From positions 1 through 45,969 of IMG/VR virus record IMGVR_UViG_3300029822_000019: a stretch of DNA of 45,969 nucleotides, one strand, 5' to 3'. A program made the translations under genes and the position numbers. This document shows positions 4,870 to 13,455 of this stretch, in pieces (position 1 is the stretch's first letter; every line of letters starts with the position of its first letter). This DNA comes from a virus (lineage: Duplodnaviria > Caudoviricetes). Below the pieces are notes generated by a model. That model saw only the letters and a program-made list of their open reading frames with translations. It ran no database searches and had not been told where the DNA came from.

Positions 4870-5103
4870 TTATTCAATATCAATTCCTTCATCGATCTGC
4901 CTGATTCTCTCCTGGCATATATGAATGATCTTCTCGTAGTCCAATCTCCTGGGATCGGTGCCTTTTTTCCTGAGCACTCTTTTGACAATGTCTGCATCGA
5001 ACGGATTAAGTTTATATTCAATCCAAATGTCCCATGGTTGGATCTTATGCTTTGAGTAGTCAGATGATCCTACATTGTGCCCACGAACGTCACTCTTTTC
5101 CAT
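4870..5103 (-). CDS. DUF3310-like protein (putative nucleotide kinase, T7 gp1.7-like)
   Basis: VGSSDY..IQPWD.....LN.F....VK..LR..G.....DYEK pattern; coupled to thyX. Confidence 0.6.
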   Translation of the reverse strand: MEKSDVRGHNVGSSDYSKHKIQPWDIWIEYKLNPFDADIVKRVLRKKGTDPRRLDYEKIIHICQERIRQIDEGIDIE

Positions 5104-5749
5104 CTCCGAAAATCTCAGGTAGTACCTCCTTGAATATATCCCTCAAAGGGATCATCAACTCTCGCATCTGTGGATGAGCCGCAGGTGAACACCTTTGCCG
5201 GAAGATCTCCCTCCATTCTCTGAGGTTGGCAGTGACAACGATTTCGGTCTTCAAGGAATTCGGCAGAACAGATCTTGCTTCCTGAGGGTTCCAACCTACC
5301 TGGATCATACTCTTATAAATGTCCTGAGAATTCTGCATAGCATTAAGCCAAAGGATTTCACCGTGTGACTGAAGACCAAAAGTAGATTGATCCCCTTCAC
5401 CAGGTTCGATCTTTGACCAGGACGGAATAATGAAAGTAAGTTGATTGTCAAACTTGTCATTTGAGTAATTACAATATCGGGTAGACTCCTGAGAGAAGGA
5501 GGCTATCCTGTGCCGAACCAATTCATGTGAGACCCCCCTGTCACAAATGAACTTCACAGAAACAGACTGATGTTCGACCACGGACAAATGACCCCGACCG
5601 ACTATCATTTCCACAAACCTACTTGCTGAGTCCTCAGTGATTTTGTCCTCAGATTTATAGCAAGTACGACCAGCCATTTCAATGGCTTTAAGGATCTGAC
5701 TCCTATCTATAGGAGTCAAGATCTCAAACGATGGTTTTATTAGTCTCAT
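5090..5749 (-). CDS. thyX: FAD-dependent thymidylate synthase
   Basis: GHLSVVEH, HELVRHRIASFSQESTRY (ThyX signature), EARSVLPN, NLREW, AHPQMR. Confidence 0.95.
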   Translation of the reverse strand: MRLIKPSFEILTPIDRSQILKAIEMAGRTCYKSEDKITEDSASRFVEMIVGRGHLSVVEHQSVSVKFICDRGVSHELVRHRIASFSQESTRYCNYSNDKFDNQLTFIIPSWSKIEPGEGDQSTFGLQSHGEILWLNAMQNSQDIYKSMIQVGWNPQEARSVLPNSLKTEIVVTANLREWREIFRQRCSPAAHPQMRELMIPLRDIFKEVLPEIFGDGKE

Positions 5750-5755
5750 AGCTTT

Positions 5756-6199
5756 TTATTTTGTACCAGTTGAACCGAATCCCCCTGCCCCTCTTTCGGT
5801 AGACTCAGGATATAACTCACTCACTGTGTCCACCACTTCGATACCTTCATAAGATACCGGAACCAAAAGCATCTGGACCAATTTCTCACCAGGCAAAAGT
5901 TCCTGGACGTCCATTCCTATATTAGTAACATGCAGGTGTACCTCCCCCTGGTAGTCCTCATCAACTACACAGGCCCCGACCTGAAGATGTTTCTTTGTGG
6001 CCACACCTGATTTGTTCATCACGATCAAGGCAAAGCCTTCAGGAACCTGAACATGAATCCCCGATGGGATGTTTACGTCTTGACCTGGAGCAAGCCAGTG
6101 TGATCCTGGAAAGTCATTTGGGATATAGAAGTCAATCCCGGCCGATTTCTCTGTGCCCCGTGTTGGGGTCTTTACGTCTCTTACTTTAGTGATTTTCAT
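5756..6199 (-). CDS. dut: Trimeric dUTPase
   Basis: SAGIDF, KSG, VVDEDYQGE, ERGAGGFGSTG. Confidence 0.93.
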   Translation of the reverse strand: MKITKVRDVKTPTRGTEKSAGIDFYIPNDFPGSHWLAPGQDVNIPSGIHVQVPEGFALIVMNKSGVATKKHLQVGACVVDEDYQGEVHLHVTNIGMDVQELLPGEKLVQMLLVPVSYEGIEVVDTVSELYPESTERGAGGFGSTGTK

Positions 6200-6204
6200 A
6201 CGCT

Positions 6205-7524
6205 TTACTTTTTAAAAATTTGATTATAGAATAAGTCAAACACCTTGGCCTTATAAGACTCAGGGGTTTGTCTGAGTTGATCATTCTTGAGTGGAACCTT
6301 TTCACGGTCCAGGATTTCATCCGGGAGCAGACCTCTGAAGGTATCTTTCAAATGCTTCTTTTCGATCCTCTCTGAATAAGGGAGAGCCAGGGCATACTTG
6401 ACTACATCATGTGAGAGGAAAGGATTTCGTAGTTCGATGGTGTACCTCATCGAGGCCCTGTCCAGGCGAGGCAGATGATAGAATGGAAGTTCTTCAAATA
6501 CATCAGACTTCTGAGAGTCATAGGTCTTGATGCGCCTGTACCCTCCAAACAGTTCATCCGCTCCGTCTCCTGTCAATACGATCTTTTCAGGAACCACTCC
6601 CAGAAGTTTATGTTGAGGGATCACTGAACCAAGATCGACGGGGGTTTCATTCCAGAGAAAACTTTCGGCCATTTCCTGATCAATATCATAAGTCAAGTAG
6701 GTCAAATCAATACCAAGGAATTGGGCCAATAAATTGGCATATAAGGCCTCATTATTCTCCACTGAATAAAAGGTATTGGTTGAGCCCAAATCATTCAGGA
6801 TTCGGGCTATTATGGATGAATCCAAACCTCCTGAGACCAATGTTCCAACCTGATATGTTTTAGAGATCAATCTCCTTTCAACAGCCCTATATAATAAGGT
6901 CCGGAGGTCCTCCTTCGGTTGGTTCTTGGTCCAATCGAAATAAGGATACGGATCAACAATCAAGATCCGTCCGGAGACAAAAACATAGAGCCTGTTTGGC
7001 ATGATCCGGCGTACGCCTTCCCACGGTGTTCGATCGTCTGTGTTATACCCCCATTTGTAGACTGAACTCTTGTATAGTTCATCGAATGCTTGGTTCCGGA
7101 CCAAAGGCCGGATCTCTGAGCAGATTTCACCCCTTTCATTATAGTATAGTTGTTTCTTCCCTAAGGGGTCAGTGAAGCAATACATGAATCCATTTGGGGT
7201 GACGTGGACGATAGACCAAAACCCATCCCAATTGTTCGCCTCCTCCAGGATGTCCCGGATGTTCTCAGAGTTGAACAGGTCAAGCAGATACTCAACGTCT
7301 GAAGTGTATTTCATAGGGATGTTGAAGATCTCCCCATTGAAGAGAAGAAGTCCCCCATCCTTGAGCTTAAGGGGTTGTTCCCATCCATCCCCTTCAACAG
7401 TCTGGATCGGAAGGCGATGGTGCCCAAAGTAGAAACCGAACCCCTGTTCGTAATGAGATTCGATCCCCCTGTGTTTCAACAGGGGGATTCGATCAAGATC
7501 TCGTGTTATTATTATTCCGCACAT
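6205..7524 (-). CDS. Asparagine-synthetase-B-like glutamine amidotransferase
   Basis: N-terminal MCGI (Ntn Cys), HRG, FNGEIFN, DPLGKKQLYY, PP-loop SGGLDSS, TGDGADELFGGY, ELRNPFL. Confidence 0.9.
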   Translation of the reverse strand: MCGIIITRDLDRIPLLKHRGIESHYEQGFGFYFGHHRLPIQTVEGDGWEQPLKLKDGGLLLFNGEIFNIPMKYTSDVEYLLDLFNSENIRDILEEANNWDGFWSIVHVTPNGFMYCFTDPLGKKQLYYNERGEICSEIRPLVRNQAFDELYKSSVYKWGYNTDDRTPWEGVRRIMPNRLYVFVSGRILIVDPYPYFDWTKNQPKEDLRTLLYRAVERRLISKTYQVGTLVSGGLDSSIIARILNDLGSTNTFYSVENNEALYANLLAQFLGIDLTYLTYDIDQEMAESFLWNETPVDLGSVIPQHKLLGVVPEKIVLTGDGADELFGGYRRIKTYDSQKSDVFEELPFYHLPRLDRASMRYTIELRNPFLSHDVVKYALALPYSERIEKKHLKDTFRGLLPDEILDREKVPLKNDQLRQTPESYKAKVFDLFYNQIFKK

Positions 7525-7525
7525 A

Positions 7526-7750
7526 TTATTTAAGTTTTACCTGTATCACTCCTCTACCCCCTGCTTCTTGAGCTGATTCTATGAAATTCAGAGACTTTAA
7601 ATATCCTACAGCTCCGGGATTCATCCTCATATTCCTTACATAGATGGTTCTACCTTTTGCTTTCCAAATTGATCCTACGGGTTGAACTAATTGAAAATTA
7701 GGGTTACTTATACCAAGCTGAGTTACAAAGATTTGTTCTGAAGTTGTCAT
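7526..7750 (-). CDS. Hypothetical protein
   Basis: 74 aa, first gene after promoter copy 2. Confidence 0.65.
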   Translation of the reverse strand: MTTSEQIFVTQLGISNPNFQLVQPVGSIWKAKGRTIYVRNMRMNPGAVGYLKSLNFIESAQEAGGRGVIQVKLK

Positions 7751-7770
7751 ATCTATTAAGTTTGATGCAG

Positions 7771-7830
7771 CAAATGTACGATATATTTTTCAGATAAAAA
7801 AATTATTTCAGATAAAAGTGAAATTTATTT
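7771..7830 (-). promoter_or_regulatory. Conserved phage promoter/operator, copy 2
   Basis: caaatgtacg...tttttcagataaaaaaattatttcag...gtgaaa on the plus strand. Confidence 0.8.
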
Positions 7831-8322
7831 TCCATGGTTCTCGTGGTAACCATATTCGATCTCGGCTTCTTTCCTTGCTTCAACAGCTTCTTCGAAACTG
7901 GTAAACTCCCCGAGATTCTTCACCTTTCGATCTACACTTATATAAGCTTTCCATTTATTCTTCAGGGGCCTGAAGCAAACCCCGACTACCCCTGAAGTGT
8001 TATTTGAGTTCATTTTTCTGTTCTTCTGATTCTCCTTATGGGGTACGTCTCTCAGGAGGTTGATCTCATTGTCTGACTGGTCATGTTCTATGTGATCGAT
8101 CTCTTCTTTAGGCCATTCTCCGTGAATATATAACCAAGCGAGTCGATGAGCTCTGTATGGTTTCTGATCTATAGTTATTTGTCTATGTCCATACCCGTGA
8201 GTACATCCTGCTAAGTCCCCTTTCTTTGCTCTACCTCTTTGAACCAACCAATGAAAGTCTCCTGTCTCAGGATTATAAGACAGGAGTTCCTTCAATCGTT
8301 CCGATGTTAGTAGATTACCCAT
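7825..8322 (-). CDS. HNH-AP2 homing endonuclease
   Basis: LSYNPETGDFHW, AHRLAWLYIHGEWP, IDHI...DN, NTSGVVGV...KWKAYI...LGEF...EAVEARKEAE. Confidence 0.9.
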   Translation of the reverse strand: MGNLLTSERLKELLSYNPETGDFHWLVQRGRAKKGDLAGCTHGYGHRQITIDQKPYRAHRLAWLYIHGEWPKEEIDHIEHDQSDNEINLLRDVPHKENQKNRKMNSNNTSGVVGVCFRPLKNKWKAYISVDRKVKNLGEFTSFEEAVEARKEAEIEYGYHENHGK

Positions 8323-9050
8323 TGGCTCAGTTCTTTGTGATAAGCGTGGAAACTACCAGCATAATAGTTTAGAGCCCCACATTTCAATCCCGGATAAACA
8401 GATTGGAGTTCATCAACCACATATTGTTGAATGGCATGAGTAAGCCAAATGTCGATTGCGAAATGATTAAAATAATCATTGCTCCGGATGTAATACAGGA
8501 CCATCAATTTGTTGTTCCTGATGAGGAACTGATATGAGATCGAGCAGGGGATTCGGGTTTGAAACCCTGCAGAGTCTTTTGTGTCCACAGGATCAAATAT
8601 CATAACCATCGCCCTCCTGGTGTGTTCATCATCCTTCAGAGCAGCAATGGCGTTGTCCAATTGCCCCATGTGATTGATCCTTTCCGAATAGGTGTAGTCA
8701 AATTTATCCCCCTCAGCTTTCGACATTAGTTTCTGCCAAAGGTCCAGGCGTACCTTATATGAGTTCCCGGGATTGAGTCCAGCCCTGTTCAAGCGGTCTC
8801 CGAGTTCAGTCCAGCAATAGTCTTCAATGTTCTTGGCTTCATCCTTAAAGATGAATTCCAGCATCTCCTTCTTCTTAAGGAAGGGCTTGGAGATAATGAA
8901 GTTGACTCCGATCAGTTCCTTGGTGTTCTGGTTCTTTCCCTCGAGCGCCTGGTTCTGATAATGTTTCACAGGGACTGTGATCCCTGATACTTTCAATTCG
9001 CGATCCATCTCTTGGATCATTTCTAAACAGTCTTTAAATATCCGTGCCAT
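8307..9050 (-). CDS. Thymidylate-synthase-fold enzyme, predicted dCMP-specific (dCMP hydroxymethylase-like)
   Basis: YTYSER, TRRA, catalytic PC169, YQF, RSND, SFHAY; Asp200 sits at the position of E. coli ThyA Asn177. Confidence 0.8.
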   Translation of the reverse strand: MARIFKDCLEMIQEMDRELKVSGITVPVKHYQNQALEGKNQNTKELIGVNFIISKPFLKKKEMLEFIFKDEAKNIEDYCWTELGDRLNRAGLNPGNSYKVRLDLWQKLMSKAEGDKFDYTYSERINHMGQLDNAIAALKDDEHTRRAMVMIFDPVDTKDSAGFQTRIPCSISYQFLIRNNKLMVLYYIRSNDYFNHFAIDIWLTHAIQQYVVDELQSVYPGLKCGALNYYAGSFHAYHKELSQWVIY

Positions 9051-10263
9051 TTTCTTTTTGTTTTACGAGTTCACAATACTTTTTACTTCCACAAAATTGA
9101 CAGACTTTTTCCTGAGCAGAATATCCCACCATCTGGCAAAAGTCATATTTGTTTTGATCAACATAGTTGTTCGGTTTGATCAGCCGTTTTTGAGTGTAGT
9201 CCTCCTCATGCCTGTTACCTTCCAGGAAGTCCTTAATCTGCTGAGTGATGAATGTACAGAACTCAACAGGCATAAACTTTCCAGTCTGTTTGATCAGCGA
9301 TCCATATTGTTTATTAGTCTGGGTAACATTCTTGGGGAAGAATACAAAATCATCCGGGCATCCTTGGATCTTGGCCCGTTCCCGGATGGTGAACGGGTAT
9401 AAGGTGTCACTCCTGAAGTGATTATCGAAGGCAGCGCCTCCGCCGGAGAGAACACCAGCGTGACCATTTACGTCAATCGGATAGAACCCTATTCTCAATT
9501 TGCGTTCCCCTTTCCGGTTGTAATAGGGGATGATATTATTGAGAGGAAGGTCCTTCAAATACCCCTGCAGTTCTCTGAGGGTGATCCGGTTCTCATCCAC
9601 TGATTTGTCAATATAGTCGGGATCAAAGTTGTATCGTCCCCAGCCACTGTAGATTGCATCAAGATCTAATCTTTCATTGTTCTCAGCGTCCGGGCTTATT
9701 TCCTCCAGGCGTTCGATGATAGTAGTATCATGCTCGAATTCTCCAGGTATGAAATAGAACCCCAATTCTCTGAGGGAGCCAATGACGAAGAGTCGTTTCC
9801 TATTCTTCTGAAGGTTACCATAGCCATGATTGTTGATCCACTCGAAGTGAATATCATAATCGGGCAAATTCTCCATGTACCAGGCCCAATCCGCCACGAT
9901 CAGTGATTTGGGTAGGTTATCCATCACAAAGAATTTTGGCCTCAGTTTTTGGACCGCCTCGATGAACTGAGGAATGTCTCCCTTATCTCCTGCATCGATT
10001 GCATTGTTCTTGTTGGCCCGCATATTAGAGAAGTTCCCGCACTCAGTGTGCCCGATGATAAGATCGAGATCCTGACATGCTTCGAGTTTCTCCTGGTCCA
10101 GGTCCTCAAATCGATCAATCATAAAACTACCGGGGAAATTATGTTCAAACGTGCCAGTATGATAGTACTGTCTCCACTCGATATTCCCAACTATGTCATA
10201 TCCTTGGCGTTTCGCTCCTATGAGCATGGAGCCGACCCCACAAATCATTCCAAGTGCTTTCAT
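9034..10263 (-). CDS. Divergent DNA cytosine-C5 methyltransferase-fold protein
   Basis: Motif I ICGVGS, IV GHTECGNFS, VI MDNL, VIII QKNRKRLF, IX TIRERAKIQGCPDDF, X QTGKFMP, in canonical order. Confidence 0.85.
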   Translation of the reverse strand: MKALGMICGVGSMLIGAKRQGYDIVGNIEWRQYYHTGTFEHNFPGSFMIDRFEDLDQEKLEACQDLDLIIGHTECGNFSNMRANKNNAIDAGDKGDIPQFIEAVQKLRPKFFVMDNLPKSLIVADWAWYMENLPDYDIHFEWINNHGYGNLQKNRKRLFVIGSLRELGFYFIPGEFEHDTTIIERLEEISPDAENNERLDLDAIYSGWGRYNFDPDYIDKSVDENRITLRELQGYLKDLPLNNIIPYYNRKGERKLRIGFYPIDVNGHAGVLSGGGAAFDNHFRSDTLYPFTIRERAKIQGCPDDFVFFPKNVTQTNKQYGSLIKQTGKFMPVEFCTFITQQIKDFLEGNRHEEDYTQKRLIKPNNYVDQNKYDFCQMVGYSAQEKVCQFCGSKKYCELVKQKENGTDI

Positions 10264-10264
10264 A

Positions 10265-10831
10265 TTAGTAGTTTGAATTGATTCTAAATAAATTGACTTG
10301 ATACTTCAGGGACCAGAGATCACATACCTCGTCGATCGACATACCTAAGTGATGGAAGATATTAAGATATAACTCCCAGATCTTTTTGAAGCGGGCTTCA
10401 AATATGTACAGGTCTACGAGGTACTGAGACCGGCGCCATTGCCTGTTCTTCAGAAGATTTGCCGTTACACCCAACTGGTAAACAACCTTAAGGACTTTCT
10501 CATCGACTGAGCAGGAATTCAGTTGGATTGATGAAGGAAGATTCTTGAGGTTCCAGCCATAAAGCAAATAGAGTTCGATCAGGAAGTTGAACCCGTCAAT
10601 CAATTCTTCTCTGAAATGATTTTCGTTCTTGCGGTCCTCCATTGCCTCCATGAGCTCCTCTGTGATCCTCCAGCAATACCTTTTGAAAACCTCTTGATCT
10701 TCGTAGGTGTCAATATCGAAGTGAGTGAATATCTCTCTCGCCTCGGGTTCATACAGAAACTTGATTTCTTTCTGTTTCTCGAATATCGTTTCAAGACTAT
10801 ATCTTATTGGGTTGAAGTCCTCGATGTTCAT
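10265..10831 (-). CDS. All-alpha (dimeric dUTPase/MazG-like) dNTP pyrophosphatase, possible dCTPase
   Basis: IFEKQKE, TEELMEA, REELIDGFNF (ExxE...ExxD metal site), KYQVNLFR. Confidence 0.7.
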   Translation of the reverse strand: MNIEDFNPIRYSLETIFEKQKEIKFLYEPEAREIFTHFDIDTYEDQEVFKRYCWRITEELMEAMEDRKNENHFREELIDGFNFLIELYLLYGWNLKNLPSSIQLNSCSVDEKVLKVVYQLGVTANLLKNRQWRRSQYLVDLYIFEARFKKIWELYLNIFHHLGMSIDEVCDLWSLKYQVNLFRINSNY

Positions 10832-11121
10832 TCCTTATCCTCTTTTTTAGAAGTTGGTTCCACACCATTGTGGTAGTTATTCAGAGCCCCGATATAGGCT
10901 ACCGCATCCAGGAGGTTGTCCTCCTTATGAGAGTAGGCTTCACGGGCCAGCTTGAGAGCTATTTGGAAGTAGTAGATGTCCAGTGTGCTTACTTCCTTGT
11001 TGCACAGAACGGTCGCGATCTTAGCGGCCCGTTCATTACATTCAATGAAAGGCCCGTATTCTCTTTCTTTCTCTTCGGACCTTTCATTGATGATCTGGTT
11101 CGCTTTTTCCAGAATGTTCAT
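10828..11121 (-). CDS. DUF6378-like protein
   Basis: ILEKANQII..R...YG.F...A........LKLARE....KEDNLLDAVAY pattern. Confidence 0.65.
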   Translation of the reverse strand: MNILEKANQIINERSEEKEREYGPFIECNERAAKIATVLCNKEVSTLDIYYFQIALKLAREAYSHKEDNLLDAVAYIGALNNYHNGVEPTSKKEDKE

Positions 11122-11123
11122 CC

Positions 11124-11918
11124 TTATTTCTCTGTTTGAGTTTCGATTGAACCTTCTTCAGCGGGAGCAGCTTCCTCAGTAGCCGGAGCTTTTTCTTTCT
11201 TAGGAGCTTTCTCCTTCACCGGAACCGGAGCAAGATCCCCGATCTTCAGGTCTTCGGAGTCGATCCCTTTTCCGTACATGTTACCATCTTCGGCGAGGAT
11301 GCGGTACTGAATGAAGTTGTTGCGTTTGTCCAGGCGAACACCTTTGATGATGCCCTTAGTTTCTTCTTTGGTCTTGGTGCAGAGGAAAATGACCTCGTGA
11401 CCTTTGTTCTTTTCTGCTGCGTCCATACGAGGAAGGATCTCCTCCTCAGTCAATTGCTTCTTCAGGGGTTTGGGTTCCTTCTCAGCTTTAGGGGCCTTCT
11501 CCTTTTTCGGAGCCTTTTCCTTTTTAGCTTTAGGTGCTTCAGACTGAGCCTCAGCAACATCTTGGCCTGAGCCTTCAGCAGGAATGTCTTCGTCGGTCAA
11601 TGTGGTGTTCATGATTGCACCATCCTCAGAAGGATGTTCTTCAAGAGCACCGCGATCAACCAGTATCTCCTGGATCATTCTCAGTTCAACTCCTGTAGCA
11701 GATGAGCGAGATTTCTGAAGTTGTTTTGTTGACTTCCTTTTCAGGGTAGAGAGTTCGACCTCTGTCAGTTCCAGAGTGTCTACGTAGTCACGTTCAATGA
11801 CTTCAGTAACTCGTGCCACGAAGGCCTCTTTTGTTTCTCCTTCTTCAGCGAAGAATTGAACACCGTTCGACAAGCGAATTTCTTTTTCCGATTTTGATTC
11901 AAATAATTGAGCTTTCAT
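11124..11918 (-). CDS. Hypothetical protein with KEKAPK repeats
   Basis: 264 aa, low-complexity Lys/Glu/Ala/Pro linkers; directly downstream of promoter copy 3. Confidence 0.8.
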   Translation of the reverse strand: MKAQLFESKSEKEIRLSNGVQFFAEEGETKEAFVARVTEVIERDYVDTLELTEVELSTLKRKSTKQLQKSRSSATGVELRMIQEILVDRGALEEHPSEDGAIMNTTLTDEDIPAEGSGQDVAEAQSEAPKAKKEKAPKKEKAPKAEKEPKPLKKQLTEEEILPRMDAAEKNKGHEVIFLCTKTKEETKGIIKGVRLDKRNNFIQYRILAEDGNMYGKGIDSEDLKIGDLAPVPVKEKAPKKEKAPATEEAAPAEEGSIETQTEK

Positions 11919-11964
11919 CTTTTTAATTTTTTAGAGTGAAACATTATGTAATTGATTACAGAGG

Positions 11965-12025
11965 CAAATGTACGACCTTTTTTTCAGATAAAAAAATTAT
12001 TTCAGTAAAAAGTGAAAAATAATTT
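11965..12025 (-). promoter_or_regulatory. Conserved phage promoter/operator, copy 3
   Basis: caaatgtacgacc-T-run-cagataaaaaaattatttcagtaaaaagtgaaa. Confidence 0.8.
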
Positions 12026-12027
12026 CG

Positions 12028-12423
12028 TTAAAAAGGTAAGTCGTCGTCTGGAGGATTACATCCTTTGGAGCTATTTGCTTGTAAACTAAGCACTTGAATG
12101 TTTCCGATCTCATACCCTTTCCGAGGATCAATCCTATCTATAGAGGCGGATTTTTTGGTCTTCCCCTTCAATTCAATGTAGTTTGTCTCTTCACAGAAGG
12201 TCCGGAACTCCTCTAAAGTGAGATTGAACTCCTTACCCCTGCGCTTGGCGTTCTGATGCAGAAGGTTGTATGTATACCCTATGGGGTTGGTCTCCTTCTG
12301 GAACCTCGCATGATGCTTATGACAAAACCTCTTCTTCGGAGCTTTGTTCGCCATGCACCTGTACGCCTGGCACAGGTGCGGCTTCTTGTTGGTCTTGATC
12401 TGGAACATTATCAAAGTATTCAA
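12028..12423 (-). CDS. HNH-like endonuclease (SIDRID type) with N-terminal Cys/His finger
   Basis: AKRRGKEFNLT, SIDRIDPRKGYEIGNIQVLSLQANSSK; true start may be the internal ATG at 12408. Confidence 0.7.
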   Translation of the reverse strand: MNTLIMFQIKTNKKPHLCQAYRCMANKAPKKRFCHKHHARFQKETNPIGYTYNLLHQNAKRRGKEFNLTLEEFRTFCEETNYIELKGKTKKSASIDRIDPRKGYEIGNIQVLSLQANSSKGCNPPDDDLPF

Positions 12424-12568
12424 GTAGGTCCTTTTTCTTGATTCCGGTCACTCTGTAGTGCTTGTCATGAATCCGAACCTTAATTGGTTTTTTAATCTCG
12501 CTTATTATTTCTATATCGGTCTGCCCCTCCAGGAGAGCCTTCAATTGTTCAAAGTCTATTTCTTCCAT
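12317..12568 (-). CDS. Hypothetical protein
   Basis: 83 aa; start overlaps the deaminase stop codon. Confidence 0.55.
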   Translation of the reverse strand: MEEIDFEQLKALLEGQTDIEIISEIKKPIKVRIHDKHYRVTGIKKKDLLEYFDNVPDQDQQEAAPVPGVQVHGEQSSEEEVLS

Positions 12569-13455
12569 TACAGTTCAATTTTATCAACAACAATTCCTGC
12601 TTGTCTCAATAAGTCGATCCCTTCAGTGATTCGATACTCCTCCGCATATACTACTCTCTTTATTCCGGACTGGATGATCAGCTTTGAACATTCCATGCAA
12701 GGAGAAACTAAAGTGTAAAGGGTTGCATCCTTACTACTGTTAGTCGACTGAGCTACCTTTGTAATCGCGTTAGCCTCCGCGTGTAGCACGTACGGGTGAG
12801 TCTTTATATCTGTATACTTAATTGTTTGAAAGGTCCTTGGATCAACAGAGTCAAGATAAAACTGAGCTGCTTCATTTGGATCGTCGAACCTTTTATGGAT
12901 ATATTTTTCAGGAGTCCAGATTGCTGCTACCCATTTATTTCTGGAGGCGTCAAAAGAAACGCCAGGATGCTCACAAGTATTTTCCATTCTTTGACTGCGA
13001 TGAATTGAGTTGTATCTGTTTGAACACCATTCCAGATTGATCAACCTGTTGTCTTCAACATTGTAATTTATATGATTGACTTGAGTATAAAAGTCAGGAT
13101 CTGGATTTTCTACAAAGGTACTCATTATGACATGAGATACTTTCCTTTGAATCCCCATGATCTTACAACATTGATATTTTCCTGAGGTATGAAGCCATTT
13201 AGAAATTGGTTCACCGTTCTTGAAGATGTTACCTTCTGTATCTGCTTCAATTCCGAGAAAATAAGGATGAGGTTTTCTCTGATATTCAATGTACTCACAT
13301 TCGTTCTTAAACCCTGACACTGTACCATTGTAACCATCCGAGATGATCATTTGATCTTTGACTATGATAGCCCCGACTTTCAATCTTTTGGCGTAGGAAT
13401 TCTCAGACCAGATCTGAGCCATACGCAAATACTGTTTGTCAAACTTTTCCAACAT
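12568..13455 (-). CDS. dCMP deaminase with in-frame HNH-AP2 insertion
   Basis: KVGAIIVKD..IISDGYNG (aa 26-44), HAEANAI (225-231), SPCMEC (251-256); aa ~55-217 are an HNH/AP2-like domain. Confidence 0.88.
   Translation of the reverse strand: MLEKFDKQYLRMAQIWSENSYAKRLKVGAIIVKDQMIISDGYNGTVSGFKNECEYIEYQRKPHPYFLGIEADTEGNIFKNGEPISKWLHTSGKYQCCKIMGIQRKVSHVIMSTFVENPDPDFYTQVNHINYNVEDNRLINLEWCSNRYNSIHRSQRMENTCEHPGVSFDASRNKWVAAIWTPEKYIHKRFDDPNEAAQFYLDSVDPRTFQTIKYTDIKTHPYVLHAEANAITKVAQSTNSSKDATLYTLVSPCMECSKLIIQSGIKRVVYAEEYRITEGIDLLRQAGIVVDKIEL

Follow-up and report, generated by a model that had tools for sequence, protein, structure and literature searches.

What does a phage make with a thymidylate synthase (TS)-like enzyme of the deoxycytidine monophosphate (dCMP) type, a C5-methyltransferase (MTase)-fold enzyme and an AsnB-like amidotransferase, all encoded in one block? 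The question is raised by positions 4870-13455 of the virus record IMGVR_UViG_3300029822_000019, whose entire 45,969-base stretch (the window; estimated completeness 100%) was analysed here. A sequence-only reading of this block had proposed a conserved cytosine-modification module, distinct from dTTP supply and containing a rewired MTase-fold enzyme, and our analysis supports this proposal. We consider it quite probable that the product is a modified cytosine that has not been described so far, and we propose, with a probability of roughly 0.4, that the block builds a C5-substituted, amide-bearing cytosine, the TS-like enzyme acting first, the AsnB-like enzyme second and the MTase-fold enzyme last. 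L-numbers denote loci and G-numbers genomes compared in the analysis.

Conservation of the module

The central genes lie on the minus strand and encode the AsnB-like class-II glutamine amidotransferase (AsnB; 6205-7524; Pfam Asn_synthase, 4e-37, and GATase_7; N-terminal Cys2), the TS-like enzyme (8307-9050; Pfam 9e-11; RSNDYFNHFAID; Asp200 at the N177 position), the C5-MTase-fold enzyme (9034-10263; Pfam 2e-23), an all-alpha dimeric dUTPase_2 pyrophosphatase (10265-10831; Pfam PF08761, 4e-8) and a small DUF6378 protein (10828-11121; Pfam), which recurs in the module. The predicted co-occurrence of TS-like, MTase-like and AsnB-like genes in other phages was found, above chance, in a neighbourhood search. 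Among 71 MTase-anchored loci, the window included, 61 carry the TS, 51 a dCMP deaminase, 50 AsnB, 32 dUTPase_2 and 27 a P-loop kinase, and a dCMP-type TS is located nearby in 42 of the 45 well-flanked MTase loci. As to the three misses, L053 carries a TS elsewhere in its genome, and the MTase of L074 and L075 has lost its His (seen in L074).

A TS-anchored search, from which 80 of 507 relatives were retained, was pooled with the MTase-anchored set; dereplication at 90% TS identity reduced 144 loci to 107, and 78 were left after 29 short-flank loci had been dropped. In this pooled set the MTase is over-represented, and it is the exclusions, not the frequencies, that are informative. The gene slot next to the TS is occupied either by the MTase (43 loci) or by a second TS-fold protein, termed u0 (26 loci), but never by both (0 of 78), and u0 never occurs together with AsnB either. 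The architectures are u0 only (26), MTase and AsnB (16), MTase only (14, counting L069, in which a relaxed threshold reveals a partial AsnB), MTase, AsnB and an N-methyltransferase (13), none of these (5), AsnB and N-methyltransferase (2) and AsnB only (2), i.e. AsnB lacks an MTase partner in 4 of the 78 dereplicated loci, with or without the N-methyltransferase. Whole-genome searches, with G011 as positive control, found AsnB without MTase in G001 and G005 (both complete) and in G002 (incomplete), and, again with positive controls, MTase without AsnB in G006, G009 and G011 (complete) and in G013 (incomplete). As whole genomes thus contain each without the other, TS and pyrophosphatase form the core of the module, and AsnB and MTase are optional layers.

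No glycosyl-, carbamoyl- or pyridoxal phosphate-dependent enzyme was present among the 66 of 82 unlabelled neighbours that were scanned, the other 16 being judged replication or recurrent genes, and the same 66 candidates contained no third slot enzyme for the loci that lack both MTase and u0. The label 'MazG-like' of neighbour cluster 14 was given by inspection, not from the library scan.

The u0 protein corresponds to PHROG 13667/34294, which is unannotated; hhalign assigns it a TS fold (P 90%), the folate-binding Asp being missing. Together with a TS carrying the diagnostic Arg discussed below it forms a cassette in the cultured phages Muddy, Cleo, Serbin, PMBT14, Strzyga, Zuko, Huwbert and CPD4, none of which has the MTase form; in Muddy it comprises gp47/gp46 (L237:5033-6702), and L238-L242, L076, L079 and L080 are further cultured loci of the u0 type. 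The literature searched, largely non-subscription, contained no study characterising the module or any modified base of Muddy-type phages.

The TS-fold enzyme

The TS contains the catalytic Cys169, Arg166 at the position of E. coli L143, Asp192, which corresponds to the folate-binding D169, and Asp200, which represents an N177D exchange, as well as the family-specific residues Q32, R86, N93-P94 and Y121-x-E123-R124. In the alignment of the MTase-anchored copies C169, R189, D192, D200 and R166 are invariant (59/59). The Arg three residues before the catalytic Cys (Cys-3) is also found in all 144 TS genes examined, but the pattern of the TS-anchored search demanded it, so that only the 59 MTase-anchored copies provide an unbiased count. 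The AlphaFold2 (AF2) model has a predicted local distance difference test (pLDDT) score of 92, and the matches in the PDB are MilA, T4 gp42 and AfhB, the best profile match of the family being of the flavin-dependent AfhB type (6e-19). Pocket positions in both the TS and the MTase derive from sequence alignment and known structures rather than from inspected coordinates.

According to the available part of PMC13326640, the L143 position is Asp or Glu in hydroxymethylases and Leu in ThyA, and D169N marks the hydroxylases. Judged by these criteria, D200 means that dCMP is the predicted substrate, together with the catalytic C169 (both 59/59), and D192 (59/59), which stands in place of D169N, excludes a flavin-dependent 5-hydroxy-dCMP synthase. 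The Asp/Glu of T4-type dCMP hydroxymethylases is likewise absent, Arg being found in 59/59. Nor does the enzyme belong with the Xp12-type dCMP methylases: the Xp12 enzyme has an Asn at Cys-3 and lies outside the TS family, scoring 53 bits with the family hidden Markov model, similar to a ThyA (47 bits) and far below cultured family members (221-296 bits), and no DHFR match was found in the loci by BLAST with Xp12 DHFR as the only query. The sequence-only reading had suggested that the TS makes hydroxymethyl- or methyl-dCMP before replication and that the MTase-fold enzyme elaborates it on DNA. This order fits the data; the proposed product is not supported, since the TS has an Arg at the position that is Asp/Glu in hydroxymethylases and Leu in ThyA.

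Some relatives show further variation around the TS. In L036 (13024-14472) the TS gene holds a large endonuclease-like insertion; L108 (4911-9206) encodes two TS genes and a 271-residue protein that is glycosyltransferase-like by eye and has no Pfam match; and in L077 (8151-9771), a gut phage of the u0 type, genes for an IspD-like cytidylyltransferase and a LicD-family transferase directly follow the TS, possibly as another tailoring layer.

The C5-MTase-fold enzyme

The MTase has 256 homologues at E <= 0.001, the best 120 of which were aligned. Its AF2 model (pLDDT 96) yields, among the Foldseek matches listed, C5-MTases exclusively, with CmoX at rank 14, and the catalytic Cys of this fold is present. 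The canonical motifs FxGxG, PC, ENV and GN are replaced by ICGVG, EC, DNL and GK, and the score against TIGR00675 is 61 bits, below the cut-off of 100.65. The characteristic elements are G71-H72-x-E74-C75, D115-N-L in place of ENV, Q152..R155-x-R157, G328-K329 and a C-terminal four-Cys module (C376/C388/C391/C397). In the best 120 homologues His72 and Cys75 are conserved in 119 sequences, Asp115 in 118 and each Cys of the C-terminal four-Cys module in 113-116, while position 329 is Lys in 117, Arg in 2 and a gap in 1. In the alignment to HaeIII, HPEC lies opposite GPPC, DNL opposite ENV and QTGKFMP opposite MIGNAVP, which places Lys329 at the Asn position of motif X (Asn in HhaI/HaeIII, Arg350 in CmoX). 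With the roles of the HhaI residues as reference, the family has throughout lost residues of the F18/P80/E119/N304 type. A base-flipping DNA enzyme is suggested by several retained features, namely Glu29, which binds ribose, the arginines of motif VIII and a VLSGGG segment resembling a target recognition domain (TRD).

Insertions that are intein-like by inspection are located exactly at the catalytic Cys (HPE|C...KN|C) in L072 (10001 region) and L162, and together with the conservation in 119 of 120 homologues they indicate that this Cys matters.

The family is a separate lineage, as it matches CmoX more weakly than HaeIII by profile (1e-6 vs 4e-26) and as the MTase and AsnB of phage TurkishDelight score 40 and 160 bits, below the family ranges of 122-655 and 364-585 bits. 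It also looks viral. No cultured phage carries it, the best of 24 INPHARED matches being ordinary methylases with 21-29% identity, and among the 78 GTDB loci listed the only cellular members are five contigs of metagenome-assembled genomes with 31-45% identity, the rest being ordinary MTases. The basal MTase of L108 (SPSC...GKGV) may represent an evolutionary link to SPPC-type enzymes.

The amidotransferase and the order of steps

The compact AsnB exhibits all hallmarks of a class-II glutamine amidotransferase, i.e. the N-terminal Cys (Cys2), the Gln-site residues (R37, N63-G64-E65, D76), the PP-loop (SGGLDS, followed by GDGADE) and the catalytic Lys (K409). It is not an asparagine synthetase B proper: the TTxR aspartate site is replaced (DLGSV for DITTVR), and the score against TIGR01536 is 177 bits, the cut-off being 267. 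The catalytic residues are thus conserved while the motif for free Asp is not; the best match in a cultured phage is that of TurkishDelight (26% identity). An N-methyltransferase with an NPPY motif accompanies AsnB in 21 of 21 loci and is found in none of the 45 well-flanked loci without AsnB. As this enzyme occurs only together with AsnB and as the free-Asp motif of AsnB is replaced, an amide product is favoured. In L017, L038, L059 and P0090 the Lys-type MTase is naturally fused to the NPPY N-methyltransferase (712-863 residues).

The MTase varies with AsnB. In 56 dereplicated MTases, from which four short-flank copies without AsnB had been dropped, residue 74, directly preceding the catalytic Cys, is Glu/Asp in 43/43 sequences with AsnB and in 1/13 without it (K in 7, S in 3, and Y, P and D in one each), and residues 7, 30, 33, 34, 142 and 331 shift with AsnB as well. 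Two nested AsnB losses near the window clade show the residue-74 switch (L012/L014 and L015); the degenerate copy of L074 does not. The catalytic positions of the TS covary neither with AsnB nor with the type of slot enzyme (best p 0.005). This suggests that the group is already amidated when it enters the MTase pocket, i.e. that AsnB acts upstream, since an enzyme acting before amidation need not track AsnB, and the TS indeed does not. A predicted complex of MTase and AsnB scored 0.00; control pairs were not folded, and this value is not used either way.

Proposed pathway and alternatives

Based on these findings we propose the following pathway. The TS would bind dCMP via Asp200 and methylene-folate via Asp192 and form the usual exocyclic methylene, whereupon Arg166, located where water or hydride enters, may hold an anionic nucleophile, giving rise to a 5-substituted dCMP that bears a carboxylate. 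This carboxylate must arise without the MTase, because AsnB occurs without it (4/78 loci; complete genomes G001 and G005). Our best guess for the nucleophile would be an acidic amino acid, a choice for which we take alpha-glutamylthymine as analogy, although Asp or Glu specifically is unlikely. AsnB would then adenylate the carboxylate and amidate it with glutamine-derived ammonia, and in relatives the NPPY N-methyltransferase would methylate the amide. The pyrophosphatase would lower dCTP, so that the phage PolA may incorporate the modified nucleotide. In the last and weakest step the MTase-fold enzyme would flip the substituted base, Cys75 attacking C6 and the side chain being clamped by Lys329 and residue 74 (a Glu where the group is an amide, often a Lys where it is a free carboxylate), and would most likely finish by alkylating the side chain in an S-adenosylmethionine (SAM)-dependent manner. 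The full scheme, in which a TS fold would couple dCMP to an amino acid and pass it on to amidation, N-methylation and on-DNA tailoring by a C5-MTase fold having given up C5 methylation, is in our view doubtful.

Several observations weigh against this pathway. We know of no TS that adds an amino acid, and the invariant C6-attacking Cys is unnecessary for simple methylation of a side chain. The covariation of residue 74 comprises four independent pairs (three concordant, none opposite, one unchanged; p 0.25, trait columns excluded from the tree) and fits a group borne by the base and one borne by the donor equally well. Some AsnB genes lacking an MTase partner look eroded (R37W and Q304E in L085, a broken motif in L090). 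A dNMP kinase of the neighbour family, present in 33/78 loci, is absent from the window genome, and therefore a host kinase or another route would be required. As for complete substitution of cytosine, the continued avoidance of C-containing palindromes is equivocal: on both strands of the genome GGATCC (0 observed vs 31 expected), CATATG (0 vs 21), GATATC (2 vs 31) and CTAG (4 vs 125) are rare and AATATT is likewise avoided, GAATTC, CCGG and GATC being over-represented; a comparison of palindrome usage between architectures gave no clear signal. Finally, the five TS genes shown in the MetaGPA study to make 5mdCMP (bioRxiv 10.1101/2024.12.05.627091) might belong to the TS family discussed here.

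The invariant Cys would be explained by a different, rather unlikely division of labour, in which the TS makes 5-hydroxymethyl-dCMP and the MTase or u0, via a covalent adduct between its Cys and C6, regenerates the exocyclic methylene and couples it to a nucleophile of the amino-acid type; AsnB would have amidated this nucleophile or its donor before the transfer. A catalytic Cys and an acidic residue that reads cytosine are retained in MTase and u0 alike; the two share a gene slot and exclude each other, and the different slot states are intermingled across the TS tree (seven independent pairs, about four in the same direction, none opposite). C5-MTases couple thiols to 5-hydroxymethylcytosine (5hmC), and such an exchange accounts for His72 as well as for the Cys and, if the varying group is donor-borne, equally well for residue 74; u0 has a TS fold and lacks the folate Asp. 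Dehydroxymethylation of 5hmC by C5-MTases is also on record (PMC11347137, available part). Yet this model gives no role to Arg166 of the TS, a hydroxyl is a poor leaving group and the window genome has no kinase, and 9 of the 78 loci, four of them with AsnB, contain neither slot enzyme, with no third candidate found among the 66 neighbours scanned. Carboxymethylation of C5 by the Lys-type MTase with carboxy-SAM (Cx-SAM) on DNA, followed by AsnB-dependent conversion to 5-carbamoylmethylcytosine while the TS works on other cytosines, was the second suggestion of the sequence-only reading; we regard it as quite improbable, and as chemistry it is not new, matching the CmoX/CmoY system in the available part of PMC12783734. 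The same part of that paper places CmoX R350 and the engineered M.MpeI N374K exchange where the family has K329 (117/120; R in 2) and describes, next to CmoX, an AsnB cluster that bears a glutaminase, and the MTase is present in 29/33 AsnB loci. As the logic of the whole system, however, it conflicts with the absence of CmoA from all five phage genomes searched, the window genome included, and from the neighbour clusters and the 66 scanned neighbours. CmoA exceeds its family cut-off in only 7 of 151 Bacteroidota genomes, and also in G018, so that the Cx-SAM route would depend on an uncommon host. Moreover, the SPPC motif is replaced by GHTEC (His in 119/120) and ENV is missing, the CmoX match is much weaker than that of HaeIII, position 329 is Lys instead of Arg, albeit still basic, the TurkishDelight pair falls below both family ranges, AsnB and MTase each occur alone, the MTase pocket varies with AsnB, and the near-obligate link to the TS would be unexplained.

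The most conventional outcome, to which we give a slim chance, is that the TS makes 5-methylcytosine (5mC) or 5hmC as in Xp12 or T4, the MTase being a site-specific methylase and AsnB an unrelated metabolic add-on. An Asp-type TS with deaminase, pyrophosphatase and PolA is a published 'modified-C' neighbourhood, five of seven such TS genes tested gave 5mdC (both from the available part of bioRxiv 10.1101/2024.12.05.627091), and restriction-site avoidance persists in the window. Against this stand the family-wide loss of canonical MTase residues and the tracking of AsnB by the MTase, an AsnB without the free-Asp motif, a window phage with its own ThyX and loci without a DHFR match to the Xp12 query.

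Accessory genes and genome context

ORF and Pfam checks found every gene named by the sequence-only reading at its given position on the minus strand, and the junctions confirm that DUF6378, pyrophosphatase, MTase and TS genes overlap or abut (4-nt overlap, 1 nt apart and 17-nt overlap, respectively). Their common orientation had been stressed as well; it is real, but carries no information, since the annotated genes of the whole window lie on the minus strand. The inventory had overlooked two HNH-type genes and an insertion in the deaminase. One of the former is a free-standing HNH endonuclease between TS and AsnB (7825-8322), which relatives lack at this place; the other lies at 12028-12423. 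The dCMP deaminase (12568-13455; Pfam) has 295 residues compared with 136 in the L010 orthologue, owing to an in-frame HNH+AP2 insertion of about 160 residues (about 57-217) in the loop before the HAE motif, which has no evident intein ends; L009 and L011 share it and L010 lacks it.

Genes for dTTP supply are accessory: ThyX (5090-5749; Pfam 1e-49) and a trimeric dUTPase (5756-6199; Pfam), the latter in 10/71 loci. The nearest relative, G015, lacks ThyX and deaminase although its MTase, TS and AsnB are 98%, 97% and 98% identical, and the deaminase is also absent from G006 and G001; ThyX and deaminase are thus dispensable and not obligatory parts of the module. The dUTPase_2 protein retains E58/E59/E62, KN..W and K..VN..R and is predicted to clear dCTP/dUTP. 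A 264-residue acidic low-complexity protein without family match (11124-11918), upstream of DUF6378, is kept only within a close clade (7 loci), and the block contains, besides this ORF, two of 74 and 83 residues. For the 77-residue gene at 4870-5103, previously called DUF3310-like, there is no Pfam match; the candidate DUF3310/SaV-like assignment derives from an Atlas lead (0.96), DUF3310 being annotated on 28-43% of the nearest-cluster members. All these genes are on the minus strand.

Besides head and tail genes, the window genome has genes for PolA, a VapE primase and an SNF2 helicase. The portal protein shares 65% identity with that of Croceibacter phage P2559Y, and about 95% of 77 portal matches (73-74) carry Bacteroidota genus names (Flavobacterium, Bacteroides, Parabacteroides, Croceibacter, Elizabethkingia, Alistipes), i.e. 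the host is probably a member of the Bacteroidota.

Implications and comparison with known systems

If the proposed pathway is correct, it would define a family of amino-acid-amide cytosines not seen before in DNA, and the new base and new chemistry of the TS and C5-MTase folds would widen the anti-restriction repertoire and yield DNA-labelling enzymes. The module set is common to dozens of other uncultured phages, and the same TS core, with a second TS fold replacing the MTase, also occurs in cultured phages. One of these is Muddy, a phage used in therapy, in which an unrecognised cytosine modification would matter for engineering and for the interaction with host defences. As the four-gene core is small and the TS family occurs in cultured PMBT14, Cleo, Zuko and Muddy, the question is directly testable.

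As judged from its sequences, the module resembles the pre-replicative pathways of T4, RB69 and Xp12, shares the pairing of MTase and AsnB with CmoX/CmoY and fails the defining tests of each. With the T4 gp42/gp56/gp1 hmC pathway and MilA it has in common an Asp177-type TS with folate Asp, an all-alpha dNTPase, a deaminase and, in many relatives, a kinase; it differs by the Arg at L143, the MTase-fold and AsnB partners, the absence of a glycosyltransferase and, in the window genome, of a kinase. The flavin-dependent 5-hydroxy-dCMP synthases RB69 gp48, DLP3 gp80 and HY126 AfhB (PMC13326640, available part; PDB 9iqc/9iqu) are earlier examples of a TS fold that has taken on new chemistry, but their diagnostic D169N is missing here. 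The 5mC phages Xp12 and PaMx74 and the MetaGPA neighbourhood (bioRxiv 10.1101/2024.12.05.627091 and PMC8670742, available parts) share the Asp177 TS, the in-cis deaminase, the pyrophosphatase and PolA, whereas Xp12 combines a TS with Asn at Cys-3, from outside the family, with an adjacent DHFR and the window phage encodes ThyX, the Xp12-query BLAST giving no DHFR match. The CmoA/CmoX/CmoY system of Synechococcus phage S-B43 and the TurkishDelight-type glutaminase variant (PMC12783734, available part; PDB 8YF3) are alike in the C5-MTase fold, the basic residue at N304 and the adjoining AsnB-like ligase; the module has GHxxC/DNL/GK instead of SPPC/ENV/GR, Lys instead of Arg, an extra four-Cys module, near-obligate TS and pyrophosphatase partners and no CmoA, and its enzymes form separate sequence families. 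A further related system is the cultured cassette of Arg-type TS and u0, which belongs to the same TS family and has the same layout of kinase, dUTPase_2, slot, TS, (deaminase) and PolA, but contains no MTase or AsnB and fills the slot with a second TS fold.

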